This document shows, one piece after another, positions 9,677-33,860 of a stretch of DNA of 36,506 nucleotides. The DNA is taken from positions 1 to 36,506 of IMG/VR virus record IMGVR_UViG_2534681651_000007. One strand, written 5' to 3'. Positions within the stretch are counted from its first letter, which is position 1. Every line of letters starts with the position of its first letter. The position numbers were made by a program, and so were the translations under genes. Under the pieces are notes generated by a model that was not told the DNA's origin, searched no databases, and was given only the letters and a program-made list of their open reading frames with translations. This DNA comes from a virus. Taxonomy: Duplodnaviria; Heunggongvirae; Uroviricota; Caudoviricetes.

Positions 9677-9838
9677 ATGACAAAACGTCGTAAGAAATAC
9701 CAGGAAAAAGAAGAGATTCGACACCCTGATTCACCTGAGGGATTAGTGGTAGCCGCAGCAAATAACAGGGCGTTCGCAGAGCGCCTTGTTGGTGTTTACA
9801 GACTAGCCAAAGCAGGAGTGAAACATGGGCGTCGTTAA
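9677..9838 (+). CDS. Small basic hypothetical protein (53 aa)
   Basis: CAGGAG Shine-Dalgarno 7 nt upstream of the ATG at 9677; between cII and the replication genes. Confidence 0.55.
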   Translation: MTKRRKKYQEKEEIRHPDSPEGLVVAAANNRAFAERLVGVYRLAKAGVKHGRR

Positions 9839-10645
9839 GTTAGCTGATTACAGGCCTCAACTGGAGGTCGTGGAGCATCGCGTGGCAGATACCGAAGATG
9901 GTTTCATGCGCGTTGCTAACGAGATTACCGACAGTCTGCTGATGGCTGATTTAACCGTCCGGCAGTTGAAGGTGATGATCGCTATCATGCGCAAGACATA
10001 CGGATTCAATAAGCCGATGGATCGACTCACAAACACGCAGATAGCAGCCATGACAGGTATTCATCACACTCATGTTTGCGCTGCCAAGCGCCAGCTTATT
10101 GAGCGTAAATTCCTCATTGCTGATGGCGTGAAAATCGGAGTGAACAAGGTGGTTTCGCAGTGGATTAGCCAGGACAGCTTAACATTAGCTAAAACAGCTA
10201 ATAAAACATTAGCCAAGTCGGCTAATGGGTATAAGCCAAGTCAGCTAAACACAAAAGACAATATACAAAAGACAATAAATACAAATACCCCCTTACCCCT
10301 AACGGGGGTGGCGATGGGCAGGTTAAACCTGAACGTCGCAAGGCAGAACGCATCGACTACGAATCCTTCCTGAACGCCTACAACACCGAAGTCGGTGACA
10401 GACTGCCACACGCTGTTGCGGTCAACGAGAAACGCAAACGCCGCCTGAAGAAAATCATCCCGCAACTGAAAACGCCAAACGTGGACGGTTTCAGAGCGTA
10501 TGTCAGGGCGTTTGTACATCAGGCCAAGCCGTTTTACTTCGGAGACAACGACACGGGCTGGACGGCTGATTTTGATTACCTGCTGAGAGAAGATTCGTTA
10601 ACGGGAGTTCGGGAAGGGAAGTTTGCAGACAGGGGGATTGCATGA
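9825..10645 (+). pseudogene. O: Replication initiator, lambda O-like, apparently interrupted: N-terminal part in one frame (9825-10373, 182 aa) and a start-less C-terminal continuation in another frame (open from 10235 to stop 10643-10645)
   Basis: N-terminal segment TVRQLKVMIAIMRKTYGFNKPMDRLTNTQ resembles the lambda O DNA-binding domain; ori iterons lie inside the ORF; the second frame has no ATG/GTG start yet ends in an ATGA overlap with the helicase gene. Frame switch must fall between 10250 and 10330, near C5 (10288-10292) and G5 (10304-10308). Confidence 0.65.
10165..10287. repeat. ori: Origin of replication: four ~17-bp dyad iterons (TTAGCC-N5-GCTTAA, TTAGCT-AAAAC-AGCTAA, TTAGCC-AAGTC-GGCTAA, TAAGCC-AAGTC-AGCTAA at 10165, 10186, 10209, 10232) followed by an A+T-rich stretch
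   Basis: Direct repeats at 21-23 bp spacing read directly; architecture matches lambda ori embedded in the O gene. Confidence 0.8.
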
Positions 10646-12018
10646 GACAGGATATCGAAGCGAGCGTTATCGGTGGCCTGCTGATTGGTGGATTAACACC
10701 AACCGCCAGTGACGTTCTGGCAACGCTGGAGCCGGAAGCGTTTTCAATTCCGCTCTACCGGAAAGCCTTCGAGGTTATCCGCAAGCAGGCGCGAAACAGA
10801 AACCTAATCGACGCGCTGATGGTTGCCGAGGCGTGCGGAGAGGAGCATTTCACGTCAATCCTGATGACCAGCAAAAACTGCCCGAGTGCCGCAAACCTGA
10901 AGGGATATGCCGGAATGGTCGCGGATAACTATCACCGCCGCCTGGTGCTGGAAATCATGGATGAAATGCGTGAACCAATTCAGAGCGGAACCATCGACGC
11001 ATCGAGTCAGGCGATGGATGAACTTGTAAAGCGTCTTTCAGCCATCAGAAAGCCCCGTGACGAGGTTAAACCGGTACGGTTAGGGGAAATCATCACTGAC
11101 TACACTGACACGCTTGACAGGCGTCTGAGGAGCGGAGAAGAGTCAGATACCCTGAAGACCGGAATCGAAGAACTTGACGCCATCACCGGAGGGATGAACG
11201 CAGAAGACCTGGTGATTATCGCCGCTCGTCCTGGTATGGGTAAAACCGAACTGGCGCTGAAGATTGCCGAAGGCGTTGCAAGCCGCGTTATTCCTGGTTC
11301 TGACGTCCGGCGCGGAGTATTGATTTTCTCGATGGAAATGAGCGCATTGCAGATTGCAGAGCGAAGCATTGCCAACGCCGGGAGGATGTCGGTTAGCGTG
11401 CTACGAAATCCTGCATCGATGGATGACGAAGGCTGGACGCGTGTTGCTAACGGCATGAGTCAGCTTGCAGATTTGGATGTATGGGTAGTCGATGCCTCGC
11501 GGTTATCGGTCGAAGAAATTCGCTCAATCGCAGAACGGCACAAACAGGAAAATCCAAACCTGTCACTCATCATGGTGGATTATCTTGGCCTGATTGAGAA
11601 GCCGAAAGCAGACCGCAACGACCTCGCAATTGCTCACATCTCAGGAAGCCTTAAGGCGATGGCGAAAGACCTGAAAACGCCTGTTATCTCCCTAAGTCAG
11701 CTTTCACGCGATGTTGAGAAGCGACCAAACAAACGCCCGACAAACGCAGATTTGCGTGATTCAGGAAGCATTGAACAGGACGCAGACTCAATCATCATGC
11801 TCTATCGGGAAGCGGTATATGACGAGAACAGTAGCGCCGCACCATTTGCTGAAATCATTGTGACGAAAAACCGTTTTGGCTCACTTGGTACGGTTTACCA
11901 GCGGTTCTGCAACGGACACTTTGTTGCATGTGACCAGGATGAAGCCAGACAGATTTGCACAGCATCAAATGCGCCTGCTGCGCGTGGCAGACGATATGCA
12001 CAAGGGGCGGACGTATGA
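10642..12018 (+). CDS. Replicative DNA helicase, DnaB family (P22 gene 12-like)
   Basis: 458-aa ORF with Walker A ([12 protein letters not shown]) and DnaB-like motifs; start overlaps the O C-terminal stop. Confidence 0.92.
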
Positions 12019-15306: not shown

Positions 15307-15445
15307 TGACCCAACGATGGGTTAATTCGCTCGTTGTGGTAGTGAGATAAAAAGAGGCGGCGCTTACTACCGATTCCGCCTAGTTGGTCACTTCGACGTA
15401 TCGTCTGGAACTCCAACCATCGCAGGCTGAGAGGTCTGCAAATGC

Positions 15446-16981: not shown

Positions 16982-17128
16982 ATGTCCGCAGTAAACGCGC
17001 TTCACACGCGCGACTTATGAACACAGAACCTTTCAGGATGACCCTTGAGGATGCCGGTTTGGTGATCGGTGCCTTTCTGTGGGCCGGAATCCTGTGTGAC
17101 AAGGTTCATCACTAAAAGGTAATCACTG

Positions 17129-17659
17129 ATGAAGTACCCAACAGTTATTGTCAATGGTGTGTCCGTTCGTGTTGATGAGGATGGACGCTACAACTTAAAC
17201 GATCTCCATGCAGCAGCAGTTGCAAATGGAGAGGCTACAGAGCAACAGCGCCCAAGCCAGTTTTTGCGTAGCGCGCAGATAAAACGCTTCATAAAAGCAC
17301 TGGAGGCCAAAGTGCAAAAAAGCACTTTGGAACAAATTCAATCACTTAAAATAATCAAAGGTGGTGCGGAACCAGGTGTGTGGGGTGTTGAACTTCTGGC
17401 AATCAGATATGCAGCATGGATTAAGCCGGAATTTGAAATCGAAGTTTATGAAGTTTTCAAAACGGTTGTCCGCCTCGGCGTTGGCGCAATGTCCCGTCTG
17501 AATAGAATCGATCACATCATCAATACTGAAACCAAAGCGATAAGCCAGTGCGCAAGCCAAATGGCGAAGTGGGGCGTTGGTGGGCGAAAAAGATTGCTTC
17601 ATGTTGCACGTGAGAGAGCGGCAAATGAAGTGCAAATGTATTTGCCCGGAATGGTGTGA
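17129..17659 (+). CDS. KilA-N domain protein (176 aa)
   Basis: N-terminal region (VIVNGVSVRVDEDGRYNLNDLHAAA...QRPSQFLRSAQIKRFIKALE...) resembles the KilA-N DNA-binding domain as I recall it; family assignment is from memory. Confidence 0.6.
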   Translation: MKYPTVIVNGVSVRVDEDGRYNLNDLHAAAVANGEATEQQRPSQFLRSAQIKRFIKALEAKVQKSTLEQIQSLKIIKGGAEPGVWGVELLAIRYAAWIKPEFEIEVYEVFKTVVRLGVGAMSRLNRIDHIINTETKAISQCASQMAKWGVGGRKRLLHVARERAANEVQMYLPGMV

Positions 17660-17768
17660 TTCTGCTGGTTAATCCGGGCAGCCCTTCAGTGAGGGCTGCA
17701 ATAATGCTTTATTCGTATGAAGACGAAGGGTAATCTGTAGGCTCTGATTATCTAATGGAGGGTTTATG

Positions 17769-17972
17769 ATGGACAATTATTTTAAATCTGGCGATAACCG
17801 AGTATCTGATTCTGAGCACCAGCGTTTAGTGGCTACCAAAGCAGCTCTTGAAATTATCAAGGCCGCCGTATCTGCCCCTACCGATGCGAAAAACGTGTCT
17901 TATGATTTGGAGGAGGCAATAAAATACCTTCCGCGGTTGACTGATGCTATTCAGGAAACGATTGGTAAATAG
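17769..17972 (+). CDS. Small hypothetical protein (67 aa)
   Basis: GGAGGG Shine-Dalgarno upstream of tandem ATGs; followed by a terminator. Confidence 0.6.
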   Translation: MDNYFKSGDNRVSDSEHQRLVATKAALEIIKAAVSAPTDAKNVSYDLEEAIKYLPRLTDAIQETIGK

Positions 17973-18025
17973 CATTTCGTTTTAGTTTTATTATTTCACC
18001 TTAAATATGAGTAAGATTAAGACAA

Positions 18026-18048
18026 AGCTACCTACGAGTAGCTTTTTT
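18026..18048 (+). terminator. Rho-independent terminator (AGCTAC-CTACGA-GTAGCT followed by T6)
   Basis: Read directly. Confidence 0.6.
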
Positions 18049-18183
18049 AATGGCTATAGCATTAGGAACATAATCATGTAAAAACCGGACAAAGAAGCCA
18101 TCGGACGGCGTCTTGTAAAACAGTAATCAAGATATGCAATACTGAAACGCCGCCTGGTATTCTCTGAGATAAAGAAGAATTAA

Positions 18184-18762
18184 TTAAGTATTAGTCATTG
18201 AATGTTTTATGTGCTCGAATAATGTGAGAGCATCATCAGATAATTCACGCCGAGAGATCCAGTCATGCTCATTCAATTGCCATGCAAGGCCTAAAGCTTG
18301 ATTCAATCCTGGATATGCAATTGGTGAGTCATCAGAGTTACTACTTGCGGCTTCCATTTTGGCTAATGGAATTCTTAAACGATTGATCTTACGTTTATAG
18401 ATCTGTATCTCATTTCGCACATGATTCAATGGAGATCCATCATTTTTTGCAAATTGATCTAATGTTCTTACTAGTTCATACATTCCTAAAACCCAGAGAT
18501 AGGAAGAAGTGATATGATCACTTAAGTCGTGCATTGGGTTTTTTAGATATCCAGTCTTGATGAGTTCAGCATCATCATTAACTAGGCGAGAATCTAGTAC
18601 ACCTAGATGTTGAAGTGTTATTGTCGACCATTGATTGTGGGCCGTAATTGCATGGGAACAGTCAACCCACCTCTTGTTTCTGTCTGCATCAAATAATCCA
18701 GCAATGTAAGCTCTAAGCCTACCATTGTGGGGCTTCTTTAATTCCTCAGACAAATTATCCAT
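18184..18762 (-). CDS. Reverse-strand hypothetical protein (192 aa from the ATG at 18762; the track shows 201 aa from a GTG at 18789) in a low-GC island between lysis and packaging genes
   Basis: AGGAG Shine-Dalgarno 5 nt upstream of the ATG at 18762; AT-rich; opposite orientation to all neighbours. P22 carries an unnamed ORF of about this size in the same slot, if I recall correctly. Confidence 0.75.
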   Translation of the reverse strand: MDNLSEELKKPHNGRLRAYIAGLFDADRNKRWVDCSHAITAHNQWSTITLQHLGVLDSRLVNDDAELIKTGYLKNPMHDLSDHITSSYLWVLGMYELVRTLDQFAKNDGSPLNHVRNEIQIYKRKINRLRIPLAKMEAASSNSDDSPIAYPGLNQALGLAWQLNEHDWISRRELSDDALTLFEHIKHSMTNT

Positions 18763-18782
18763 TTGATCTCCTAGGGTACTAT

Positions 18783-19310
18783 ATGGCACTCACCGACAAA
18801 CAAGAGATGTTCTGTCGCGAGTACCTCATCGATTTAAACGCCACACAGGCGGCTATTCGTGCGGGGTACAGCGCAAAGACAGCTAACCGTACCGCATCCG
18901 AAAACCTGTCAAAACCTGACATCAAGTTAAGAATCGCCGAACTGAAAGCGCAACGCAATGATCTTGTTGGTATTAATGCAGAATATGTACTTAATCGCCT
19001 TCTTGAAATCGACCAGATGGATGTGCTCGACATTCTCCTGCAAAACGGTGAGTTAAAGCCCATTAAAGACTGGCCTAAGGTATGGCGCACAACGCTATCA
19101 GGAATGGATGTTGTGGAGATGGTATCCGCAGATAGTGCCGCACTTCTGAAGAAAATCAAATGGCCTGATAAGGTTAAAAACCTCGAACTTCTTGGTAAGC
19201 ATGTTTCTGTTCAGGCATTTAAAGAACAATCTTCTCACGAGCTAACCGGCAAAGACGGCGGCGCAATCCAGATTGAAACATCACCGATGAGCACTCTATT
19301 CGGAAAATGA
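18783..19310 (+). CDS. Terminase small subunit
   Basis: N-terminus MALTDKQEMFCREYLIDLNATQAAIRAGYSAKTA is the characteristic small-terminase HTH signature; immediately precedes the large subunit. Confidence 0.88.
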   Translation: MALTDKQEMFCREYLIDLNATQAAIRAGYSAKTANRTASENLSKPDIKLRIAELKAQRNDLVGINAEYVLNRLLEIDQMDVLDILLQNGELKPIKDWPKVWRTTLSGMDVVEMVSADSAALLKKIKWPDKVKNLELLGKHVSVQAFKEQSSHELTGKDGGAIQIETSPMSTLFGK

Positions 19311-20722
19311 CCTCGATTAATTCTATCTTTGAACCGTTCATTGAGGCGCATCGCTACAAAGTCGCCAAAGGCGGTCGAGGTAGCGGTAAGTCATGGGCAA
19401 TTGCGAGGCTGCTTGTTGAAGCGGCGCGTCGGCAGCCTGTGCGCATACTCTGCGCTCGTGAACTGCAAAACAGTATCAGCGATTCGGTAATCCGGCTGCT
19501 TGAAGATACCATTGAGCGTGAAGGGTATTCGGCTGAGTTTGAAATTCAGCGTTCAATGATCCGTCATCTCGGAACGAATGCTGAATTCATGTTCTACGGC
19601 ATCAAAAACAACCCGACGAAGATTAAATCGCTCGAAGGTATTGATATCTGCTGGGTGGAGGAAGCGGAAGCGGTAACGAAGGAATCATGGGATATTCTGA
19701 TACCAACCATCCGCAAGCCGTTTTCCGAAATATGGGTGAGCTTCAACCCTAAGAACATCCTCGACGATACCTATCAGCGATTCGTTGTAAATCCTCCCGA
19801 TGATATTTGTCTGCTGACGGTGAACTACACCGACAACCCGCACTTTCCTGAAGTTCTCCGTCTGGAGATGGAAGAGTGCAAACGCAGAAATCCGACACTG
19901 TATCGCCACATCTGGCTAGGTGAGCCGGTAAGCGCAAGTGATATGGCAATCATCAAACGTGAATGGCTTGAAGCCGCAACCGATGCGCACAAGAAACTTG
20001 GATGGAAAGCGAAAGGCGCTGTTGTCTCTGCGCATGACCCATCAGATACAGGGCCAGATGCTAAAGGTTATGCATCGCGTCACGGTTCGGTAGTTAAGCG
20101 CATTGCCGAAGGTCTGCTGATGGACATCAACGAGGGTGCTGACTGGGCTACTTCGCTGGCGATTGAAGACGGCGCTGACCATTACCTGTGGGATGGTGAT
20201 GGTGTTGGTGCCGGGCTACGCAGACAGACAACGGAAGCGTTCTCCGGCAAGAAAATCACCGCCACGATGTTCAAAGGCAGCGAATCGCCATTCGATGAAG
20301 ATGCACCGTATCAAGCCGGAGCATGGGCTGATGAAGTCGTACAGGGTGACAACGTTCGCACTATTGGCGATGTGTTCCGCAATAAGCGAGCGCAATTCTA
20401 TTACGCGCTGGCTGACAGGCTGTATCTGACATATCGGGCGGTTGTCTACGGTGAGTATGCAGACCCCGACGACATGCTGAGTTTCGACAAAGAAGCGATA
20501 GGCGAGAAGATGCTGGAGAAGCTGTTTGCAGAACTGACGCAGATTCAGCGCAAATTCAATAACAACGGGAAGCTGGAGCTTATGACTAAGGTCGAAATGA
20601 AGCAGAAGCTCGGGATCCCATCTCCTAACCTGGCTGATGCGTTGATGATGTGTATGCATTGCCCGGAGTCGGCTGCGCAACCCGACTATTCCAGTTACTC
20701 AATTCCTTGTGGTGTAGGTTGA
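19307..20722 (+). CDS. Terminase large subunit
   Basis: 471 aa with Walker A (GGRGSGKS) near the N-terminus and a C-terminal nuclease-like region; overlapping start with the small subunit. Confidence 0.92.
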   Translation: MTSINSIFEPFIEAHRYKVAKGGRGSGKSWAIARLLVEAARRQPVRILCARELQNSISDSVIRLLEDTIEREGYSAEFEIQRSMIRHLGTNAEFMFYGIKNNPTKIKSLEGIDICWVEEAEAVTKESWDILIPTIRKPFSEIWVSFNPKNILDDTYQRFVVNPPDDICLLTVNYTDNPHFPEVLRLEMEECKRRNPTLYRHIWLGEPVSASDMAIIKREWLEAATDAHKKLGWKAKGAVVSAHDPSDTGPDAKGYASRHGSVVKRIAEGLLMDINEGADWATSLAIEDGADHYLWDGDGVGAGLRRQTTEAFSGKKITATMFKGSESPFDEDAPYQAGAWADEVVQGDNVRTIGDVFRNKRAQFYYALADRLYLTYRAVVYGEYADPDDMLSFDKEAIGEKMLEKLFAELTQIQRKFNNNGKLELMTKVEMKQKLGIPSPNLADALMMCMHCPESAAQPDYSSYSIPCGVG

Positions 20723-20723
20723 T

Positions 20724-22922
20724 ATGGCAGAAAAAAAGATGACTGACTGGCATCGCAAGGTGCTGTGCAACTTTGATAATGCCTGGTCAGCAACGCAGGA
20801 TATGCGTGAGCAGATTATTGAGGCTCAACGTTTCATCAGGGTGTCCGGCGCACAGTGGGAAGGCAGCACAAACGCTGGTTACTCATTTGATGAAGGCAGG
20901 TTTGAGCATTATCCGCGTTTTGAACTGAATAAGATTGCCCGTGAATGTGATCGCATCATTGGCGAGTATCGACAGAATCGCATCAGCGTTAAATTCAGAC
21001 CGAAGGACGATAAGGCATCGGAAGCGTTAGCCGAAAAGATGAACGGAAAATTCCGCGCTGACTATCAGGAAACATCCGGTGGCGAAGCGTGTGATAACGC
21101 ATTTGATGATGCCGTAACGGGCGGATTCGGTTGTTTCCGCATGTGTGCCGATTACGAAGATGAAATGGATCCGAGTAATGAGCAGCGCCGTATAAGCCTT
21201 CTCCCGGTTTACGACCCAGCGACATGCGTTTTCTTCGATCAGGACAGCAAGCAATATGACCGCTCTGATGCTATGTGGGCTATGGAAATGTTCTCCATGA
21301 CGCCTAAAGCGTTCGAGGCTGAATACCCTGATTCCATCGCTGCAAGTCTTTCTCGTGATGACACTGGCACTCAGTATGACTGGTCAACGCCTGATGCCAT
21401 CTATGTTGGACGCTACTACGAAGTTCGCATAGAGAAGGTGAAGCTCACAGCATTGCGTAACCCTATTAGCGGAGAAACGGCAATCTATGATGAAGAGCAA
21501 ATCAAAGATGTTGTCGACGAGCTAACCGATGGCGCATTCGAACTGATTGGTGAGCGAACGGTGAAGAAACGCCGCGTTTATTGCGGCCTTCTGTCTGGCG
21601 CTGAATGGCTGGAAGAACCGAAGCGTATTCCGGGCGAACATATTCCTCTCATCCCGGTATATGGGCGTCGTTCATTTGTTGATAATCAGGAGCGAATCGA
21701 AGGCCACGCAGCAAAAGCGATGGATGCACAGCGTCTTGAGAACCTGATGGTTTCCATGATTGCAGATAACGCCACTCAGGCTGGCGGTGATGGTATTCCT
21801 GTAGTTGATGTTGACATGATTCCTGGTCCTCTCGCCACTCATTGGGCGGAGCGCAACAAAAAGCGCCCGGCGTTCCTGCCGATGGTCAGTCTGAAAAACA
21901 AAAACGGAGATATTACTGCGCAGGCTCAGGTCAGCAGTTATACACCTCCAACACAAATGCCTCCTGCTCTTGCCGGGCTATTACAGTACACCGGAACGGC
22001 TATTCAGCAAATTACAGGTGCGTCGCAGCTTGAGAACATGCCGAGCAACGTCGCTACCGATACCGTTGATAGCATCTTTAACAGGATGGACACGCAGTCA
22101 TATATCTACATGGACAACATGGCTAAATCCATGCGTCGCGCTGGCGTTGTGTGGCTTTCTATGGCGCGTGAGGTCTATGGCAGCGATACGCCAATGCGCA
22201 TCGTTAATGAGGACGGCAGCGATGACGTGGCGCTGATGACTGGTGAAGTGGTTGACCGTCAGACAGGGCAGGTTATCGCGCTTAACGACCTTTCGCAGGG
22301 TAACTATGAAGTGACTGTCGATGTTGGTCAGTCGTTCGCTACTCGCCGTGATGCAACGGTTAAGTCGTTACTTTCCATGCTGGCACTTATCCCGCCCGGA
22401 ACGCCGAAACACGACCTTGTGTCGTCTCTTATTCTCGACAATATGGACGGCGAAGGGATGGAAGACCTGAAAGAATACAACCGCAATCAGTTGCTTCTGT
22501 CTGGCGTTATCAAGCCGAGAACGCCTGAAGAACAGCAGATGGTTGAACAGGCGAAACAACAACAGGCCAGTCATCCGGATCCGGCTATGGTTGCAGCGCA
22601 AGGTCAGCTTCTTGCTGGTCAGGCTGAATTGCAGAAAGCGCAGAACGAACAGGCAGCCATTCAGGTTAAAGCATTCCAGGCACAGACTGATGCTCAGGTT
22701 GCTGCGGCAAATGTTGTGAAAATCCTCGCATCTGCCGATAGCCAGCAGAAATCTGATATCCGCGAGGCTCTGAAACTGCTCGGACAGTTCCAGCAACAGC
22801 AAGGAGACAATGCCCGTGCTGATGCAGAGCTTGTCCTGAAAAGTCAGGCACAGGGCCATGCGCAGCGCATGGACATAAGCAGCATCCTGCAAAAATCAAC
22901 CCAGCAACAACCACAGCAGTAA
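20724..22922 (+). CDS. Portal protein (P22 gp1-like)
   Basis: 732 aa; conserved core and long Gln-rich C-terminal helical tail resemble recalled P22 portal (about 725 aa). Confidence 0.9.
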   Translation: MAEKKMTDWHRKVLCNFDNAWSATQDMREQIIEAQRFIRVSGAQWEGSTNAGYSFDEGRFEHYPRFELNKIARECDRIIGEYRQNRISVKFRPKDDKASEALAEKMNGKFRADYQETSGGEACDNAFDDAVTGGFGCFRMCADYEDEMDPSNEQRRISLLPVYDPATCVFFDQDSKQYDRSDAMWAMEMFSMTPKAFEAEYPDSIAASLSRDDTGTQYDWSTPDAIYVGRYYEVRIEKVKLTALRNPISGETAIYDEEQIKDVVDELTDGAFELIGERTVKKRRVYCGLLSGAEWLEEPKRIPGEHIPLIPVYGRRSFVDNQERIEGHAAKAMDAQRLENLMVSMIADNATQAGGDGIPVVDVDMIPGPLATHWAERNKKRPAFLPMVSLKNKNGDITAQAQVSSYTPPTQMPPALAGLLQYTGTAIQQITGASQLENMPSNVATDTVDSIFNRMDTQSYIYMDNMAKSMRRAGVVWLSMAREVYGSDTPMRIVNEDGSDDVALMTGEVVDRQTGQVIALNDLSQGNYEVTVDVGQSFATRRDATVKSLLSMLALIPPGTPKHDLVSSLILDNMDGEGMEDLKEYNRNQLLLSGVIKPRTPEEQQMVEQAKQQQASHPDPAMVAAQGQLLAGQAELQKAQNEQAAIQVKAFQAQTDAQVAAANVVKILASADSQQKSDIREALKLLGQFQQQQGDNARADAELVLKSQAQGHAQRMDISSILQKSTQQQPQQ

Positions 22923-23012
22923 TTAACCCATAACGTGCAATGGCTGTCTTTATGAGGCCTGGCACCCTATTGCCTTCCGATGGGCTGAACATCGAGTAAA
23001 CAGGGGTAACAA

Positions 23013-23906
23013 ATGGACCAGATGGCAGAAAACACACCAGAAGTTGAAATCGAAACCGACGCGTCAGAGCAGATTCCTGATGATGTCGAACTGGCTGAAG
23101 AAGTCAAAACAGAAGATGGCAGTGAGTCCTCCGGCAATGATGCAGAGGAAGCTACTGAAACTGATGACGACGAATCAGAACAGGAATTCTACTTTGGTGA
23201 CGAAAAGCTGGATTCGCCAACCAGCGAAGATAGCGCAGAGCATGGACTGGTAAAACACCTGCGCAAGACGATTAAAGAGAAAGACCGCGAGCTGAAAGAG
23301 CTGATGCGTCAGTCTCAGAAACCCGTCGAGCAGCAGCCGGTAATCACTCAACCACCGCGAATGCCAAAACTGGATGATGAGGACATCGGGTTCGATGAAG
23401 AAATCTACCAGCAACGCATGGCTAAGTGGGCAGAGGATAACGGCAAGTACCAGCAACAGGAGATGGCTCGCAAGCAGAAGGAGCAGGAGCTTCAGGCTGC
23501 CTATCAAGAGCGATTATCCAAATATCAGCAACGTGTTAAGGCTCTCAAAGTTCCTGGCTATCAGGAAGCTGAGCAGGCCGTACTCGAGGAAATCCCCATC
23601 GAGACACAAAACGCGATCCTGTTTGAGTCAGAGAAGCCGGAAATCGTTGTTCTGGCACTCGGTCGCAACGCTGAACTGCGCAAGCAACTGGCAGAAGCTA
23701 CCAACCCCGTAGCAATTGGTCGTCTGCTGGAACGTATCGAATCGAAGGCCAGAATCATGCCAAAAGCAAAAACCACGGCAGCCACAACCCCGACAGTTAA
23801 GGGAAGCAACGGCGCAGTAATCAACAACCTCGACAAATTGAAAGCCAAGGCGCTGGAAACTGGTGACTGGACGCCGTATTTCGCCGCTAAAAAGGCAAAA
23901 AAATAA
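23013..23906 (+). CDS. Scaffolding protein (P22 gp8-like)
   Basis: 297 aa, highly acidic N-terminus, coiled-coil-rich, basic C-terminus; located between portal and coat. Confidence 0.85.
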   Translation: MDQMAENTPEVEIETDASEQIPDDVELAEEVKTEDGSESSGNDAEEATETDDDESEQEFYFGDEKLDSPTSEDSAEHGLVKHLRKTIKEKDRELKELMRQSQKPVEQQPVITQPPRMPKLDDEDIGFDEEIYQQRMAKWAEDNGKYQQQEMARKQKEQELQAAYQERLSKYQQRVKALKVPGYQEAEQAVLEEIPIETQNAILFESEKPEIVVLALGRNAELRKQLAEATNPVAIGRLLERIESKARIMPKAKTTAATTPTVKGSNGAVINNLDKLKAKALETGDWTPYFAAKKAKK

Positions 23907-23924
23907 CCTATCGGAGCATTAAGC

Positions 23925-25178
23925 ATGGCTAACCAATTAGCAAAAGACCTTGAAATCATGTTCGAAAACTACGTTGAAGGCTTTGAGGCCGCCTGCGTAG
24001 TTTCCCGTAACGCTAAAAAATTCCGTCCCGGTGATACCGCAATGCAGCGAGCAGGTGATGTTCTGTATCGTCCGCAGCATTACCACATGAACATTGAAGA
24101 AGGCCTCGATCTCAGCGGCAAAACGCCTACAGCACTGGTTCAGCGCCTTGTTCCTTCTGTGTTCAAGGAGCCGAAAAACATTCTGTACACTCTGGATGCG
24201 CATGAAATGCGTGACCCGGAACATAAAACTGAAGCTGGTCGAGCCGCAGGTATGCGCCTTGCTGCACAGATTGACTCTGACCTGATTTCCATGGTCACGC
24301 AGCGTGCTACTAACGTGATCACGATGGCTGACTCAACCACAGGTTCACAGGGCCGTGATTTGTGGAACTGTGCGGCAGGTATTGATGCCACCATGACGGC
24401 GATTGGTGTACCTCAGGGTATCAACCGTCGCTCTTTCTGGAACCCCTTCAACTACAAAGACCTTGCTGGCGAGCTTGGTCACCGTGCCTATGCTCAGGGC
24501 GCAACCCTGACAGCATACGAAAAAGCGCAGATCCCTCCGGTTGCGTCCTTCGATAGCTACAAGACCGATATTTCTGGTCGTGTTCCGAAGGGTACAGCAA
24601 CTTCCATTACGCTGGCAGCAGCACCTGCGCACAAAGTTGAAGCGAAAGATGCTAACGATATGCCAGTTGATAACCGACAGGGGACCATTACGGTATCTGC
24701 TGAAGGTTTGCAGGTTGGCGATGCGTTTACCATTGCAGGGGTGAATTCTGTACACCAGATCACCAAAGATACCACCGGGCAGCCGCAGGTATTCCGCGTT
24801 CTGGCAGTAAGCGGAACGACAGTAACTATCTCCCCGAAAATTCTGCCGCCTGACAACGCGGATGTCGCCAGCCGACCATATGCAAACGTTGATGCTAACG
24901 CGGCAAATAGCGCAGCAATCACCATTCTCAACAAGAATGCTGCACCGGCTAACCTGTTCTGGGCTGATGGTTCTGTTGAGCTGATGTACGGCAAACTGGC
25001 GTTCCCGACTGGTCAGGGTCCACAGGTAATGACAGCAACCACAGAGCAGGGCGCTACGCTGATCATGTCTTACGCCTTCGACCACATCAAAGGCGTAACC
25101 ACTGCGCGTTTCACCACTCTGTACGGTTGCTCTGTACTGGTTCCTGAATATACGGGCATCGTTATTGCCGGGCAGTAA
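23925..25178 (+). CDS. Major capsid (coat) protein, P22 gp5-like
   Basis: 417 aa following the scaffold gene; size and order match the P22/Sf6 coat. Confidence 0.85.
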   Translation: MANQLAKDLEIMFENYVEGFEAACVVSRNAKKFRPGDTAMQRAGDVLYRPQHYHMNIEEGLDLSGKTPTALVQRLVPSVFKEPKNILYTLDAHEMRDPEHKTEAGRAAGMRLAAQIDSDLISMVTQRATNVITMADSTTGSQGRDLWNCAAGIDATMTAIGVPQGINRRSFWNPFNYKDLAGELGHRAYAQGATLTAYEKAQIPPVASFDSYKTDISGRVPKGTATSITLAAAPAHKVEAKDANDMPVDNRQGTITVSAEGLQVGDAFTIAGVNSVHQITKDTTGQPQVFRVLAVSGTTVTISPKILPPDNADVASRPYANVDANAANSAAITILNKNAAPANLFWADGSVELMYGKLAFPTGQGPQVMTATTEQGATLIMSYAFDHIKGVTTARFTTLYGCSVLVPEYTGIVIAGQ

Positions 25179-25219
25179 TTTTGGTGGGGCTTCGGCCCCA
25201 TTTTTATTGGGAGAAGACA

Positions 25220-25408
25220 ATGGCACGAACAATGCTCTATAAGCCTGGCAACATGATCACCTGTGGTCAGTTTGCTGTCGATTACATCATTGTTGATGAC
25301 GAAGAAGTTAAATCTCACCTGAAAAAAGGTTGGGTAAAAACTCCTGAAGAAACCGCAACGAAGCAAAAAGTGGCTAAGGCGGAAGAAGATGGCGAAAACG
25401 AAGGGTGA
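25220..25408 (+). CDS. Small hypothetical protein (62 aa)
   Basis: GGGAGA Shine-Dalgarno upstream of the ATG at 25220; between coat and gp4. Confidence 0.5.
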   Translation: MARTMLYKPGNMITCGQFAVDYIIVDDEEVKSHLKKGWVKTPEETATKQKVAKAEEDGENEG

Positions 25409-25850
25409 TCTCGTTCTAAAGGCTTTACGAAAAGCCGGGCTGTATTCCAATGCCACGTTGACAGATGCTGACCCTCAGGCAATTGAAGATGCCATTAATG
25501 ACCTCGAAGACATGATGGCAGCATGGCAGGCTAAAGGTATCGAGCTTGGATATCAGTTTGCTGATACAGAAAACGGCATCATGCCGTTACCTGACGATGA
25601 TTCAGGTATCCCTGCATGGGCAAATGATGGCGTCGCTTTGAAACTCGCTGTGCAAGTGTGCATGGATAACGTCATTCAGCCGTCAGACGCTCTCCTTACC
25701 GCTGCTGACAGTGCATATCAGACAATCTGCATCGCTTTAACCAAAATACCACCACTTGAGCGGCGAAATGACATGCCTCGCGGTAGTGGTAACAAAAGCG
25801 CGTTTACGTGGAATCGGTTTTACATCGAGAAAGATGATCCGAGTACGTGA
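25389..25850 (+). CDS. Head-to-tail adaptor (P22 gp4-like)
   Basis: N-terminus [44 protein letters not shown] resembles recalled P22 gp4 ([44 protein letters not shown]). Confidence 0.88.
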   Translation: [153 protein letters not shown]

Positions 25851-25859
25851 GGTGAATAA

Positions 25860-27278
25860 ATGCCGATTCAGCAACTTCCGTTCATGAAAGGTGTCGGCAA
25901 AGACTTTCGAAACGCCGACTATATCGACTATCTGCCAGTGAATATGCTGGCTACACCCAAAGAAATCCTGAACAGCAGCGGATATCTTCGCTCATTCCCG
26001 GGCATTGCCAAACGTTCTGATGTGAACGGTGTATCTCGCGGCGTCGAGTACAACATGGCGCAGAATGCTGTTTATCGCGTTTGCGGTGGCAAGTTGTATA
26101 AGGGCGAAAGCGAGGTCGGTGATGTTGCCGGAAGTGGTCGCGTATCAATGGCGCACGGTAGGACATCACAGGCAGTAGGCGTTAATGGTCAACTGGTCGA
26201 GTATCGTTATGATGGCACGGTTAAAACCGTCTCAAACTGGCCTACAGACAGCGGATTCATGCAGTATGAGTTAGGTTCGGTCCGTGACATTACGCGTTTA
26301 CGTGGGCGTTATGCGTGGTCAAAAGACGGTACTGATTCATGGTTTATCACTGACCTTGAAGACGAATCGCACCCTGACCGCTACAGCGCACAATATCGTG
26401 CAGAGTCTCAGCCTGACGGCATCATCGGCATCGGAACATGGCGAGACTTCATCGTCTGCTTTGGTTCATCGACGATTGAATATTTCTCCCTGACTGGCGC
26501 AACAACTGTTGGTGCTGCTTTGTATGTCGCACAGCCATCACTGATGGTGCAGAAAGGCATTGCCGGGACTTACTGCAAAACGCCATTCGCTGATTCTTAT
26601 GCGTTCATCAGCAATCCGGCAACAGGTGCGCCGTCTGTATACATCATCGGCTCCGGTCAGGTGTCACCAATCGCCAGTGCGAGCATTGAGAAAATCCTCC
26701 GCTCCTACACTGCTGATGAACTGGCTGATGGCGTGATGGAATCGCTGCGATTTGATGCGCATGAGTTGCTGATTATCCACCTTCCGCACCATGTTCTTGT
26801 TTACGACGCATCTTCAAGCGCCAATGGTCCGCAATGGTGTGTACTGAAAACAGGCCTGTATGACGATGTGTACCGCGCTATCGACTTCATTTACGAAGGC
26901 AATCAGATAACGTGCGGCGATAAGCTGGAATCCGTGACCGGGAAATTGCAGTTCGATATCAGCAGCCAGTACGACAAGCAGCAGAGACACCTGCTGTTTA
27001 CTCCGTTGTTCAAAGCGGATAACGCCAGAGTTTTCGACCTTGAAGTTGAATCGTCAACTGGAGTTGCGCAGTATGCTGACCGCCTTTTTCTCTCTGCAAC
27101 CACTGACGGCATCAATTACGGGCGTGAGCAGATGATTGAGCAGAATGAACCGTTCGTTTACGACAAACGCGTTTTGTGGAAGCGTGTCGGGCGAATAAGG
27201 AAAAATGTCGGCTTCAAATTGCGCGTTATCACTAAGTCACCTGTCACTCTCTCAGGCTGCCAGATAAGGATTGAGTAA
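25860..27278 (+). CDS. Tail hub protein (P22 gp10-like)
   Basis: 472 aa, same length and position as P22 gp10. Confidence 0.85.
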
Positions 27279-27979
27279 TGGTTGATTCATCACTGAATGA
27301 TCCTGTCGTGGTTCAGGCTACGCGCCTTGATGCTTCAATTTTGCCACGCAATATATTCAGCCAGTCTTACCTGCTGTATGTCATAAATCAGGGAGCTGAT
27401 GTCGGCGCAATTGCCGGGAAGGCAAATCAGGCTGGTCAGGGCGCTTACGATGCCCAGGTAAAAAACGATGAACAGGATGTCGAACTGGCTGATCACGACG
27501 CAAGAATCACCGCAAACACAAAAGCGATAAATCTCCTTGAAGTCAGGTTAACAACCGCCGAAGGGAAGATAGTCGTACTGCGTAGCGATGTTGATTACTT
27601 GCTGGATGAGGTTATCGATATTCAGGGGCATCTGGTCACTGTTGACCAAAGACTGGATGACGTAGAAAACGATGTCTCTGGCATTAAGAGTGATTACGTA
27701 TCGAAAACCGTAACAGAATCGCAGTCTCTTGCGTCACCGCTGGATGTAAAAACATCATATTCAGTTGATGGAATTCAGGTTGTTGGAGCAAGAAATACCG
27801 GATGGACTGCAGCCACAGGTACACCTCTTCTTAGCTCATTCAACGCTAACCAGTCATACACAGTCGGCACTACGTACACACAATCCGAAGTCGCAGCCCT
27901 CGCTACAGGTTTGCAGCAGGCGCGGCAGCGTATTCTGGCGCTTGAAACGGCACTTAGATTACATGGGCTGATTGACTGA
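27278..27979 (+). CDS. Tail needle (P22 gp26-like)
   Basis: 233 aa; N-terminus ...[66 protein letters not shown] and C-terminus ...[13 protein letters not shown] match recalled P22 gp26. Confidence 0.92.
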
Positions 27980-28434
27980 TGATTACATTCAAACCAACGC
28001 GAAACATCGACCTGATAGAAGCCGTAGGAAATCACCCTGACATTATCGCCGGGAGCAACAACGGTGATGGATACGACTACAAACCTGAATGCCGTTACTT
28101 TGAGGTGAACGTGCACGGGCAGTTCGGCGGAATTGTTTACTATCAGGAGATTCAGCCGCTGACCTTTGATTGCCACGCCATGTACCTGCCAGAGATTCGC
28201 GGATTCAGCAAGGAAATCGGGCTGGCGTTCTGGCGATACATTCTGACAAACACCACCGTTCAGTGTGTCACATCGTTCGCTGCACGCAAATTCCGCCACG
28301 GGCAGATGTACTGCGCAATGATTGGCCTTAATCGTGTAGGAACCATCAAGAAATACTTCAAAGGCGTGGATGACGTGACGTTTTACAGCGCCACACGCGA
28401 AGAACTAATCGACTTCCTGAATCACGGGAGATAG
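27979..28434 (+). CDS. Head assembly/ejection-associated protein (P22 gp14 position)
   Basis: 151 aa; assignment by gene order (P22 has 26-14-7-20-16). Confidence 0.6.
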   Translation: MITFKPTRNIDLIEAVGNHPDIIAGSNNGDGYDYKPECRYFEVNVHGQFGGIVYYQEIQPLTFDCHAMYLPEIRGFSKEIGLAFWRYILTNTTVQCVTSFAARKFRHGQMYCAMIGLNRVGTIKKYFKGVDDVTFYSATREELIDFLNHGR

Positions 28435-28436
28435 CC

Positions 28437-29132
28437 ATGTTATATGCATTTAAGCTGGGCAGAAAACTGCGCGGCGAGGAACCTTATTACCCTGAAAAAG
28501 GCGGGAAAGGTGGCAGTTCTGATAAAAGCGCAAAGTATGCAGCAGAAGCTCAGAAGTATGCCGCAGACCTGCAAAATCAGCAGTGGCAGACGATCATGCA
28601 AAACCTTGCTCCGTTCACGCCGCTTGCGGAGCAGTATGTTAACCAGCTTCAGAATCTTTCCAGTTTAGAAGGGCAGGGGCAGGCACTTAATCAGTATTAC
28701 AACTCTCAGCAGTATAAAGACCTTGCAGGTCAGGCGCGTTACCAGAGTCTTGCTGCTGCGGAGGCGACGGGGGGGCTTGGCTCGACAGCCACAAGCAATC
28801 AACTGGCCACGATTGCCCCGACTCTCGGTCAGTCGTGGTTGTCAAACCAGATGAGCAACTACAACAATCTGGCAAACATTGGCCTTGGTGCGCTGCAAGG
28901 TCAAGCGAACGCCGGGCAGACATACGCCAACAACATGAGCAGCATTGCGCAGCAAAGCGCAGCACTTGCCGCTGCTAACGCCAATAAACCATCAGGCCTT
29001 CAGACAGCAATTAGCGGCGGAGCTTCAGGAGCTATGACTGGCGCTGCTCTTGGCTCTATTGTCCCCGGACTTGGTACTGGATTAGGAGCGGCAATTGGTG
29101 GCGGGCTTGGCCTGCTTGGCTCGTTGTTTTAA
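28437..29132 (+). CDS. Ejection protein (P22 gp7-like)
   Basis: 231 aa, Gln/Ala/Gly-rich with Gly-rich hydrophobic C-terminus; order and size match P22 gp7. Confidence 0.8.
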   Translation: MLYAFKLGRKLRGEEPYYPEKGGKGGSSDKSAKYAAEAQKYAADLQNQQWQTIMQNLAPFTPLAEQYVNQLQNLSSLEGQGQALNQYYNSQQYKDLAGQARYQSLAAAEATGGLGSTATSNQLATIAPTLGQSWLSNQMSNYNNLANIGLGALQGQANAGQTYANNMSSIAQQSAALAAANANKPSGLQTAISGGASGAMTGAALGSIVPGLGTGLGAAIGGGLGLLGSLF

Positions 29133-29141
29133 GGGGTAATC

Positions 29142-30548
29142 ATGGCTACTTGGCAAGGATCAAATGGCGGATTGTTGGCTGGTATCGGTGGTGTCAACTC
29201 AAACGCTCCGAGCGTAAATGACATCGGCAATACGCTTCAGCTTATCAGGCAGAACAATGATATTGAGCGTTCAGGCGCCAATAATCTTGGGTTGACTGCT
29301 TTGCAAGGTCTTTCAGGTATTGCGGGTGTTTTTCAGCAGGAAAAGCAGGCTCAGCGGCAGAAAGAATTTCAGCAGGCATACGCTAATGCTTATGCGTCTG
29401 GTGATCGCGGTGCTTTGCGTCAGTTGGCTACTCAATATCCAGACCAGATTGAATCTGTTCGTAAAGGCATGGGATTCATTGATGAAGACCAGCGCAATTC
29501 TATCGGCACCTTAGCGGCTGGCGCACGCCTTGCATCATCGTCTCCAGAAGCAATGCAATCATGGCTGCAAAACAACGCCAAGGAACTGGCGCGCGTCGGT
29601 GTTGATCCTAACAACGTTGCTCAGATGTATCAGCAGAATCCCTCAGGATTTGGTGAGTTTGTTGATCACCTTGGAATGGCCGCGCTTGGTCCGATTGATT
29701 ACTTCAATGTTCAGGACAAGATGGCTGGTCGTGAGATTGATCGCGGAAAACTTGCAGAGACAATCCGCAGCAATCAGGCTGGTGAAGCACTTCAGGCGAG
29801 AGGGCAAAACCTTTCCTATCAGTCAGCAATGACTGGGCACAATATCGCAGCACAACGCTTGGCTCTGGATCAGCAAGAGTTCGGGTTTAAGATGCAGCAA
29901 GCGCAGGAAAAGGCTCAGCAGTTGATTAGCGAAGCACCTAAGCTGTCAGTAAACATGGAAAAAGGCATCGAGACGGCTGTAAACAATGCCACAGCATCAT
30001 CAAACTCAGCCAATTCTATGAGTGCGCTTGCTCAACAGTTCAGAGCAGAAAAACCAACGACAGGTTTGTTCGGTAACGCACAGAACATGTTCGCAAAACT
30101 TACCGGAAGCGATACGACATTGCGTGATTTGCGCATCCGACAAAATGCCCTTGTTAACAGTCAGGTTCTTAAATTCCTACCTCCCGGCCCCGCAACGGAT
30201 AAAGACGTTGAGATCGTTCGGCAGGGTGCGCCAACTGACATGGATAATCCTGAGACGGTCGCAAGATGGCTTGATGCGATGGCAAACCTTGAGCGACGAA
30301 ACGCGCAGTTTAATGAGTTTAAAGCCGAGTGGATGAGCGCGAATGGCAACCCTGGACAATCGCGTAATGGCGGTCAGATATTGGGGTTGGATGTTAAAAA
30401 AGGTGAATCATTGGGGAGTGCTGTTAAGAGGTATATGTCAATGAATACTGACGCAGCGCCAGCACAAGATTCGACTCCTTCAGGAGAATCACGGAATCAG
30501 GTTGGAGCATATACCTCAAAATCAGGCATTCAATTTACGGTGGAATGA
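29142..30548 (+). CDS. Ejection protein (P22 gp20-like)
   Basis: 468 aa; order and size match P22 gp20. Confidence 0.8.
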
Positions 30549-32392
30549 TGAAAGTAACTGCAAACGGTAAGACATTTACCTTCCCTGATGGTACGAGCAC
30601 GGAAGATATTGGCACCGCCATTGATGAGTATTTTGCTGGTCAGGCTGTTCAGCAAAAAACTGTCCGCCAGGATAGCAATGAACCAGTACGTGAAGAACCA
30701 TCATTGATGCAACAAGCTGGCGATTGGCTCACTGGTGGTCAAAGTGCAGGGCAAATTGCAGAACAGGCTGGTCGCGGTCTGGTAAACATACCATTCGACG
30801 TATTACAGGGCGGCGCAAGTCTGATTAATGCAATCAGCCAGGGGCTTGGTGGCCCCAAGGTTTTGGATGATGTTTATCGTCCAGTAGACAGACCGACAGA
30901 CCACTACGCTCAAGCTGGAGAAACAATTGGCGGGTATTTAGTTCCAGGAGTTGGAACGGCAGGAAGCATGGCTATTGGATCACTGGCAGAGGCCGCAAAT
31001 CAGAAAGGCGATTTCGCACAAAATGCAGCTAAAAATGCCGGAGTTAACCTCGCCGCTCAGGGTGTTCTTTCCGCAGCAGCAAAGGGAATAGGACGTGGAA
31101 TAACGGCTATAAAAGGCGATATTGCGCCAGAAGTAGCGAAAAAAATTGCCACATCAGAATCGATGGGCGTGACACCTATGACATCTGATGTAATCCCGCC
31201 GAAAAATGCTTTCACTCGTGGCCTTACTCAGGATGCCGAGGGGGCTTTGCTCGGGACAGGATCAAAGCGAGCGGAGCAATATGCAACGCGTAGTAAGCTG
31301 GTAAGTAATTACTTTGACCGTTTTGGTGAGTACAACCCTGATGATGTGGTGAAATCTCTGACCTCCACGTTAAGGGGGCGGAAGGATGCCGCTGGCGCTG
31401 TTATCAATGACGTCACCAATAAAATGGGTAATGCCGCAGTTGATACCACAAATACCATGAATGCTCTGAATACAGCGATCGCAAGACAGGAACGGCTTGG
31501 GACGTCTGCCAATCAAAGCCTGCTTACATCCTTGCGTAACCTACGTGAAGAATTAGCAAACCCTGCAACTGATTTGGATGTTACGTTTGATCTCTTGCGT
31601 CAGCACAGAACGGCATTTAGATCTAATGTTCAGGGAGATGCTATGGTCTTCCCCAACCAGGCAAAAGCAGCTACCAATATGGTAGAGAATGCAATGTCAA
31701 AAGACCTTCGTAACGCAGTTGCTAAAAAACTCGGTGCATCAGACGCAGCAAAATACCTTAAAGCAAATTCCGATTATGCAAACGTTTATAATAAGGTACT
31801 TAATAAAAACATTGCTAACAAGCTCAACAAGGCAAGCAGTGAAGCCAGTCCTGAACTTATAAATACCGTTGTATTAAGCAGAAAACCATCTGACGTGAAA
31901 CGAATCTGGAGCGCATTGGATAATAAAGGGAAAGATGCTATGCGTGCAGCTTACGTCAGCAAAATAGCGGAAAAGGCCGGTGACTCTCCAGCCAAGTTCA
32001 TCACTGAAGTTAATAAGCTGAAATCTCAGTCAGGCGGTGAAATTTACAACACTATTTTTTCTAGAAAGCACATGAAAGAGCTTGATGCTCTTCATGAAGT
32101 TCTACAGCAAACAGCAAGGTCAGACACCGCAAATGTAGTAACTCAGACTGGGCAATCGCAAGCCAACAGGATAAGGACGATTGGCGCAACTGCGACTCTT
32201 GGCGTATCAATGGGGATTGAGGCTGGTTTCGGTGCAATGATGCGCTTGTATGAGTCCAAAGCAGCAAGAAATGCTCTCTTACGTCTGGCAAACACCAAAG
32301 CAGGAACACCAGCCTATGAAAGAGCGCTAAATAATGCTGCAAATGCGATACGCCCTATACTTTCAAGCCAAATTACAGCAGAACAGCAATAA
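30545..32392 (+). CDS. Ejection protein (P22 gp16-like)
   Basis: 615 aa; order and size match P22 gp16; overlapping start with the preceding gene. Confidence 0.8.
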
Positions 32393-32406
32393 AAGATAAG
32401 ATATAA

Positions 32407-32892
32407 CTATCTGATATTACTGCTACTGTTGCATGTTACCGTGTTTCCAAATCCTGAATTGCAGTTTGTATATGTGTCAACGCGTGTTGGGTAAGGTTGA
32501 GTTATAACAGGCTGGCGCGCTTTTTGCTCGATCGCTTGCATTGTGTTTACAGCCTGATAATTCAATAAAGCCTGCTGGAATGCTTGGCTTTGTGCTATTT
32601 GTTGTGCTTGTTCTTGGCTTTGTAATTGAACATAAAGATTCTGAAGCTCAAGTCTTGCCTGTGCGTCACTTATCTTGCCTTCATCGACACCTTGCCCGAG
32701 CATCTTCGCAGCAAGGACATACAGCTTAGGGGTTGGTGCTGATGCCATGCGTGAGTCGTTCTTCACACTGGCATCAAGGCAATTCGCCATGTCGCTAAGT
32801 CTTGGATAACGTTGCTCGCAACTTGCCTGATAGTCGCTAACCTTTGCACACCCTGCCAGCAGAAGCGGGATAATTAACAGTGATTTTTTCAT
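32407..32892 (-). CDS. Lipoprotein (161 aa from the ATG at 32892; signal MKKSLLIIPLLLAGC), Gln-rich mature domain
   Basis: Lipobox LAGC after a hydrophobic signal; AAGGAGAG Shine-Dalgarno; reverse-oriented in the slot where P22 has sieA. Confidence 0.8.
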   Translation of the reverse strand: MKKSLLIIPLLLAGCAKVSDYQASCEQRYPRLSDMANCLDASVKNDSRMASAPTPKLYVLAAKMLGQGVDEGKISDAQARLELQNLYVQLQSQEQAQQIAQSQAFQQALLNYQAVNTMQAIEQKARQPVITQPYPTRVDTYTNCNSGFGNTVTCNSSSNIR

Positions 32893-33026
32893 ATGATTAA
32901 CTCTCCTTATCTTTGCCATCATGGCACTGTTGGGTGTAAATGAGTTATTAACTCAACTGACAATATCTTCACGGAAATACTTTTTATTATTAAGATCTTT
33001 CTGATTCTAACAAAACGGAAAGTAAT

Positions 33027-33446
33027 ATGAAGAGGATTATCGGCGTCGTTGCTGGCGCTATATTGTTATCTGGGTGTGCAACTATTGTTGGTGACGAAAC
33101 GCAGCTTGTGCAAGTGAACAGCAATCCTTCCGGTGCGAGCTTTAAAGTAAAAGACGAATCAGGCGTGATTGTTGCGCAAGGCAAGACCCCGCAAGGAGTA
33201 ACTCTTGCCAAGTCAGATGGTAGTTATTTTGGCAAAAAGAGCTATCAGATCACTATGGAAAAGGATGGGTACGAGCCAGTAACCTTGCCAATCAAAGCCA
33301 ATGCTAATGGTTGGTATATTGGTGGAAACCTTGTGTTTGGTGGGTTAATTGGTTGGCTTGCTGTAGATCCATTTAATGGTGGGATGTATACCTTGAAGCC
33401 AAAAGAGGCAAATGCATCCCTTATACCGTCCACAAAGCAAGACTAA
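33027..33446 (+). CDS. Lipoprotein with PEGA-like domain (139 aa; signal MKRIIGVVAGAILLSGC)
   Basis: Lipobox LSGC; motif NSNPSGASFKVKDESG...GKTP resembles the PEGA domain; Gly-rich hydrophobic C-terminal segment; followed by a strong terminator. Confidence 0.8.
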   Translation: MKRIIGVVAGAILLSGCATIVGDETQLVQVNSNPSGASFKVKDESGVIVAQGKTPQGVTLAKSDGSYFGKKSYQITMEKDGYEPVTLPIKANANGWYIGGNLVFGGLIGWLAVDPFNGGMYTLKPKEANASLIPSTKQD

Positions 33447-33454
33447 TAAATAGG

Positions 33455-33477
33455 ACCCACCTTCAGGTGGGTTTTTT
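33455..33477 (+). terminator. Rho-independent terminator (ACCCACC-TTCA-GGTGGGT followed by T6); the mnt stop codon lies in its loop
   Basis: Read directly. Confidence 0.8.
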
Positions 33478-33714
33478 GTACAAATCCTTCAGCGTATCAA
33501 ACACCATCTTCTTAACAAGTTCGGACTGCTCATCAGCGATGCGTTCTGCATCGTCTCGATAGCCTGAAATTTTGGATGGCTTTGATACAGCATCAGTAAC
33601 TATCTGAACTAATTCTGAATTAAGAGAGCGGCCATTGGATTTGGCTCGCTGTTTTAGTTTTTCCTTTAATTCGTAAGGTAGCCGCAGATTAAATTGCGGG
33701 TCATCTCTTCCCAT
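33463..33714 (-). CDS. mnt: Mnt repressor (ribbon-helix-helix, P22 immI type)
   Basis: 83-aa ORF MGRDDPQFNLRLPYELKEKLKQRAKSNGRSLNSELVQIVTDAVSKPSKISGYRDDAERIADEQSELVKKMVFDTLKDLYKKPT, close to recalled P22 Mnt. Confidence 0.9.
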   Translation of the reverse strand: MGRDDPQFNLRLPYELKEKLKQRAKSNGRSLNSELVQIVTDAVSKPSKISGYRDDAERIADEQSELVKKMVFDTLKDLYKKPT

Positions 33715-33777
33715 TCTTGATGCCTCGCTTTTGTGAGTGGATCGGCATCTTATTATCTGCTGGTTGCATCCTCAATA

Positions 33778-33792: not shown

Positions 33793-33860
33793 CTTTATTT
33801 GATTAATAATGCATCACTGCGGCAATGCTGCGGCGATTCCTTGTATCTGGAGCAAATTAA

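Follow-up and report, generated by a model that had tools for sequence, protein, structure and literature searches.

The initiator protein O of bacteriophage lambda binds the iterons of its origin through an N-terminal domain and recruits a replication partner through a C-terminal domain. In ori-lambda, four iterons, an AT-rich region and a palindrome lie within the linker-coding part of the initiator gene, and the locus that we analyze here, part of a 36,506-nucleotide stretch of caudoviricete DNA (IMG/VR record IMGVR_UViG_2534681651_000007; hereafter the window), has a similar layout. It differs from lambda in the sequence of its iterons and in the nature of the partner, a phage-encoded DnaB-type helicase (Pfam DnaB, DnaB_C) where lambda P is a loader of the host DnaB, and the roles of the two initiator domains in its family are assigned by analogy with lambda.

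Closer likenesses are found in the replication modules of the HK97/P22 type, in which cII, a small ORF, O and a helicase gene (HK97 gp55, P22 gene 12) follow one another in the same order as in the window, with an ATGA overlap between the last two. The initiators of these modules (HK97 gp54 and gene 18 of P22 and ST104) have in common with the window an N-terminal Phage_rep_O domain, iterons inside the gene and an AT-rich tract, and the window DNA is 98.3-99% identical to theirs over the whole gene. Against these relatives, however, the window is one nucleotide shorter, carrying a run of four cytosines (C4) at 10296-10299 where they carry five (C5), and its reading frame is broken after codon 158.

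Pairs of overlapping frames that a -1 shift connects, followed by a GC-rich stem, are also found in the programmed frameshifts of E. coli dnaX and of the lambdoid tail-chaperone genes G/GT. The window resembles these systems in both respects, but it lacks a slippery heptamer, its shift is not conserved, and its stem is present whether a shift is needed or not. The locus likewise resembles the homopolymer artefacts and pseudogenes of draft genomes, which share with it a one-base change in a 5-nt run, privacy to a single record and a perfectly kept downstream frame; nothing material separates the window from that class, the one oddity being that two unrelated records have a short run here as well.

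Results

The 5' part of an O-like initiator gene occupies 9825-10373 (this and the other features of the replication module described here lie on the + strand), reading from the ATG at 9825 to the TGA at 10371-10373 over 182 codons of the ORF list. A second frame, offset by -1 from the first (positions congruent to 2 modulo 3), is closed by a stop at 10232-10234 and open from 10235 to the TGA at 10643-10645, which shares the ATGA at 10642-10645 with the helicase start; by translation, it encodes the C-terminal domain, O residues 159-273, from about 10298. The coordinates that a sequence-only reading had given for the two frames and for the ATGA overlap all check out on the sequence, and its statement that the second frame has no possible start codon was slightly too strong: one start-like codon is present, the GTG at 10481, which would give 54 residues, though it is preceded by no Shine-Dalgarno sequence.

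Protein comparisons assign the two frames to one initiator. BLASTP aligned the first frame colinearly with residues 1-158 of HK97 gp54 and the second with residues 159-273, with 114 of 114 residues identical over 160-273, and the O-like replication initiation profile PHROG 345 is divided over the two pieces (profile positions 1-182 and 184-295 of 297). The N-terminal DNA-binding domain that marks the initiator family is present, with Pfam PF04492 (Phage_rep_O) matching residues 19-113 at E = 5.9e-33 with a score of 113.7 bits (cut-off 28.7). The C-terminal domain, which in the family belongs to the same polypeptide of about 273 residues from a single ORF, is cut off in the gene as recorded by the stop after 182 codons and is kept, 100% conserved, in the -1 frame; the recorded 182-residue product begins with native residues 1-158 and ends in 24 residues read out of frame (LTGVAMGRLNLNVARQNASTTNPS). 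Both frames are the N- and C-terminal parts of a single O-like origin-binding initiator of the HK97 gp54/P22 gp18 type.

Searches with the protein also returned some side observations. PHROG 2365 gives the truncated protein a better score (residues 2-181, 230 bits) than PHROG 345, the family of the full-length protein, does, and PHROG 27581, of unknown function, matches residues 136-182, including the out-of-frame tail, at the extreme end of its profile, which suggests that similarly truncated O proteins form families of their own among the PHROG source genomes. With the out-of-frame tail as the query, a set of 5.8 billion proteins returned just an unrelated partial wild-type fragment; truncated forms were not returned because such forms are hidden in the cluster of the full-length protein. 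Neither a search of PDB sequences with the restored protein nor an Rfam search of the whole window gave a match.

Alignment of both frames to O proteins, a check suggested at the outset, located the switch at the second C run, 10296-10299. In a four-way alignment of the window, HK97, BIS08P22 and phi330, the relatives read ACCCCCTTACCCCCTAACGGGGG where the window reads ACCCCCTTA-CCCCTAACGGGGG, and 102 of 104 aligned relatives carry the extra base at this run. Adding one C to the window gene, which is 821 nt long as recorded against 822 nt in 83 of 99 full-length relatives, yields an 822-nt ORF of 273 codons' worth of protein (273 aa), and relative to its intact orthologues the ORF is thus disrupted in the manner of a frameshift pseudogene. 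The sequence-only reading had proposed a single gene broken by a 1-nt deletion, which is exactly what the alignment to more than 100 relatives and the restored 273-aa protein bear out. It had placed the lesion in or near the C5 run at 10288-10292 or the G5 run at 10304-10308; the lesion is indeed near them, lying between the two, but it is in neither, both runs being of normal length in the window.

Compared with its relatives, the 36.5-kb window has no other coding frameshift. An apparent 1-nt insertion at 7729, seen against nine of nine relatives, sits at a mosaic junction and is not a clean indel. Separately, a second private 1-nt shortfall, a run deletion like that in O, lies in the non-coding DNA that separates the Q antiterminator gene from the holin gene (15437-15442), where the window reads CTGC-AAATGC (A3) and all seven aligned relatives carry an extra base, assigned to the A run in six of them.

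The break falls within the origin. A repeat search found four 18-nt iterons of the ATTAGCC-N5-GCTAA type, presumed initiator-binding sites, at 10164-10181, 10184-10201, 10208-10225 and 10231-10248 (spacing 20, 24 and 23 nt), all inside the first ORF. They are followed by an AT-rich tract (10249-10287) that contains a 14-nt tandem duplication (10251-10278) and is presumed, by analogy with the lambda origin, to be the DNA-unwinding region; by the segment C5-TTA-C4-TAAC-G5 (10288-10308); and, to the right of it, by a second inverted repeat (10311-10339) with 14-nt arms, 79% complementary, that forms a stable stem in both RNA folds. In the relatives, the second C5 run and the G5 run form the 5-bp stem, free of mismatches, of a GC hairpin whose loop is TAAC, the wild-type RNA fold pairing CCCCC with GGGGG, and the deletion shortens the left arm of this CCCCC-TAAC-GGGGG hairpin. 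We take the layout from 10164 to 10339 to be the lambda-type origin arrangement within the linker-coding part of the initiator gene, and because the origin is embedded there, the lesion hits the coding linker and the origin palindrome at once.

As in the rest of the family, the gene that carries the iterons and the AT-rich tract is followed by a helicase gene. The ORF list, Pfam matches (DnaB, DnaB_C) and the HK97 annotation identify a DnaB-type replicative helicase of 458 aa, of the P22 gp12/HK97 gp55 type, at 10642-12018, with AGGGGGA just upstream of its ATG. On the other side, a small 53-codon ORF of the HK97 gp53 type (9677-9838) overlaps the start of O; it is annotated at the equivalent place in HK97, phi330 and BIS08P22, is also called here, and belongs to the same conserved module as O.

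The window is part of E. coli TA124 (GCA_000242055.1, scaffold JH590760.1, with the lesion at about 91,615-91,618), and the truncated protein is EHN88848.1/WP_001389515.1, which NCBI lists, in truncated form, as 'phage replication protein O domain'. It belongs to a P22/Kapi1/CUS-3-like prophage adjoining ybhC, in the region of the lambda attachment site. The element is a mosaic (1-2700, 17000-36506) in which a lambda-type integrase and excisionase by ybhC are joined to P22-type head, injection and tailspike genes; its replication module is of the HK97/P22 type, and its tailspike ORF, from 33861, runs past the window end.

A Logan assembly of SRR024331 contains a contig of 13,472 bp that matches the window at 100% identity, C4 included. 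Because this second assembly gives the same call, C4 did not arise in the assembler; any error would sit in the reads themselves, which the NCBI and Logan assemblies probably share. Pyrosequencing, which early Broad E. coli drafts probably used, is a candidate for their chemistry. Five substitutions that are absent in more than 100 relatives are private to TA124, one in O (9978, Leu52 to Ile) and four in the helicase (10941, 11132, 11403 and 11437), of which 11132 and 11437, at codon positions 2 and 1, are probably non-synonymous.

C4 is very rare among relatives. A megablast search of a phage collection with 9825-10645 matched 183 records, many of them 98-99% identical, including HK97 (O, gp54), ST104 (gene 18), mEp213, HK446 and many Stx-converting phages; among the matches listed, the matched stretch is 822 nt long, against 821 nt in the window. 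HK97, BIS08P22 and others carry a single CDS of 822 nt (273 aa) whose stop overlaps the helicase start. The sole record of that collection with C4, all others having C5, is phi330, which is also the only one in which a single frame covers both the N-terminal part and the out-of-frame tail. An exact-pattern scan of IMG/VR viral contigs found C4 once and C5 at least 120 times, and metagenome contigs gave no C4 and 33 C5. Among 5,426 complete E. coli genomes there was no exact match to the C4 allele of either the window or phi330, while the C5 allele was present in 197 exact copies and about 430-440 at 95% identity or better; the 18 of 18 complete-genome records one event away from the window's 76-mer are C5, because their match spans 77 nt. 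GTDB species representatives held neither C4 nor C5, making that collection uninformative. Over the phage, IMG/VR, metagenome and complete-genome sets, C4 totals three records against more than 600 for C5.

Other run lengths (first run C4, first run C6, second run C6) were found zero times each in IMG/VR, which argues against a general length instability at the C runs. We also considered a phase-variable (contingency) homopolymer switch and rejected it: such a switch would have both run lengths common in nature, and they are not.

At least two different haplotypes carry C4. The O genes of phi330 and of the third record, a 12,055-bp draft contig (IMGVR_UViG_2529293213_000015, probably O157:H7 strain FRIK920, EKH01101.1), show no difference from each other or from many C5 sequences, whereas the window O gene differs from them by 10 substitutions and has its own nearest neighbours, at 6 substitutions, among C5 sequences. 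With two haplotypes, each having C5 nearest neighbours, C4 must have arisen at least twice independently, and the site is therefore either recurrently miscalled or recurrently mutated.

Phage phi330 (PV189401.1) is an Stx2a siphophage that was plaque-purified, propagated on K514 and plated on BW25113, where it forms plaques, and Sanger sequencing of its genome was done 'manually' on pUC8 subclones made with EcoRI, MunI and EcoRV (PMC12502783). Since phi330 forms plaques, its initiator must work. The simplest account of its C4 call is that bands were compressed at the GC hairpin or that one subclone had acquired a mutation; otherwise the allele would have to be tolerated. The record probably needs correction or a re-check. 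The same C4 call has led to an initiator annotated as two CDSs of 549 and 165 nt (38110-38930 of the record); the paper is silent on replication (PMC12502783). A truncated protein of the phi330 type (WP_001477322.1) is recorded from seven contigs.

The draft contig looks like low-accuracy sequence, unfit as evidence of gene decay: it has about eight further 1-nt indels relative to otherwise 99.8% identical Stx-phage relatives. These indels add another frameshift to O and put one into the helicase. In the sample as a whole, O genes are broken in 5 of 99 cases, at three different sites, so that real or apparent disruptions of O are not rare; the other breaks fall at codon 253 in one IMG/VR locus and, in a member of the 831-nt length class, at codon 64 in another.

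Discussion

Our analysis indicates, with a probability of about 0.93, that the two frames are one gene, that this gene is one base short, and that the shift is not programmed. What lies behind the missing C is a separate matter, on which our opinion is divided between an artefact and a true deletion, much as the sequence-only reading had left it; on either view the shift is sporadic and specific to the record, and the gene is not built to undergo it.

We put a base-calling artefact at a shade better than even odds. The C would have been missed at a homopolymer that forms part of a hairpin, and the TA124 prophage would carry an intact 273-aa O gene. The other two C4 records come from error-prone data, the manual Sanger sequence of phi330 and the draft contig, and C4 is missing from the high-quality sets, the complete genomes and the metagenome contigs. 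The recurrence of the call on different haplotypes and the IMG/VR tally of one C4 to at least 120 C5 lean the same way. Nor is there a sign of decay, since the 114 codons after the shift are intact and protein-identical to HK97. Against an artefact stands the full agreement of the NCBI scaffold and the Logan assembly across the 13,472 bp that include C4, from which it follows that the reads give a consistent call; and the window assembly is not visibly error-rich, as no other coding frameshift was found against relatives.

The same observations make a genuine and recent inactivating deletion, in which replication slippage lost one C from the C5 run of the TA124 prophage, a serious contender that falls somewhat short of an even chance. 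Both assemblies call C4 over 13.5 kb of identical sequence, the 36.5 kb are otherwise free of coding frameshifts against relatives, and the private substitutions in O and the helicase imply that the lineage has had time for a private deletion as well. That O genes of this type are broken in 5 of 99 cases at three sites also favours a real loss, as do the structure of the remnant, which keeps the whole Pfam domain, and the lack of a usable start codon for the C-terminal piece. A deletion fits less well with the 114 of 114 downstream residues shared with HK97, which betray no decay past the shift, with the absence of C4 from about 430 complete genomes and 33 metagenome contigs, and with the identical call in phi330, a plaque-forming phage in which a null allele is impossible.

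Much less probable, and in our judgment quite unlikely, is a shift that is real but tolerated, with full-length O made from the C4 gene whenever one P-site tRNA slips into the -1 frame. Three codons in the overlap zone, AAA at 10254, CCC at 10290 and GGG at 10305, would allow perfect -1 re-pairing. The best candidate is tRNA-Pro moving from CCC at 10290-10292 to 10289-10291, just ahead of the GC hairpin, whose GC-rich stem begins 3 nt past the site; its product would have one Pro-to-Thr change relative to wild type and the junction peptide ...TNTPLTPNGGGDGQVK, and slips at AAA 10254 or GGG 10305 would be the other possibilities. The RNA of this region folds at -29.7 kcal/mol, more stable than shuffled sequences (z = -3.1), phi330 is recorded with C4 and yet forms plaques, and its type of truncated protein is on record from the seven contigs noted above. 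Yet the canonical X XXY YYZ heptamer is missing, 102 of 104 relatives need no shift, and the hairpin and fold are equally present in unshifted relatives (HK97, -28.9 kcal/mol, z = -2.75), so that nothing points to their selection for recoding. When nothing stimulates it, a single-tRNA slip usually gives well under 1% product, a small amount for an initiator that the origin requires in stoichiometric quantity, and the phi330 call is more simply explained by Sanger band compression in the GC hairpin or by a mutation in a single subclone. A bolder form of this idea is that C4 is a real allele circulating in lambdoid phages, phi330 among them, and functional through a -1 slip on the C-rich run, so that the hairpin would be both origin element and recoding signal and low-level frameshifting would throttle replication; we consider it a long shot.

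A conserved programmed -1 frameshift, which the sequence-only reading had already rated the less likely explanation, is largely dismissed by these comparisons: 102 of 104 relatives have one continuous ORF, and a search of 10232-10373 found no X XXY YYZ slippery heptamer. The idea that the frames are separate genes, one for a DNA-binding protein and one for a helicase recruiter translated on its own, matches the two CDSs (549 nt and 165 nt) of the phi330 record and is already effectively refuted, because the GTG at 10481 would supply just the last 54 of 115 residues of the C-terminal domain, with no Shine-Dalgarno sequence, and every other relative encodes one 273-aa protein.

Returning to our main conclusion, one gene that is one base short, the consequences depend on whether the missing C was lost by the phage or by its sequencing. 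If the deletion is real, the 182-aa stump would keep the iteron-binding domain and lose the C-terminal domain, which by analogy with lambda-type initiators serves helicase or partner recruitment. We would then expect an origin that is bound but not fired, a prophage that excises but cannot amplify, and a headful packaging machinery with no concatemers to work on. The stump might also occupy and block the iterons, and it could hinder an incoming phage whose origin is of this type. With translation ending 269 nt short of the helicase start, translational coupling would be lost, although the helicase should still initiate independently because of the AGGGGGA Shine-Dalgarno sequence just upstream of its ATG. 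The origin might also be affected in cis, through the shorter arm of its hairpin. Such an event would be a textbook first step in the grounding of a prophage, one slip removing origin firing while the other genes stay intact.

If the missing C is instead an artefact, the TA124 prophage should be regarded as intact and as probably inducible, and its two CDS fragments belong in a single annotation; this would hold equally for the phi330 and FRIK920 records. The case is not novel: it concerns a frameshifted copy of a well-known gene that already stands in GenBank as a fragment, and it matters little beyond annotation. For the family, the C5/G5 hairpin of the HK97/P22-type origin is a recurrent trouble spot, one that should be checked before such prophages are called replication-defective.
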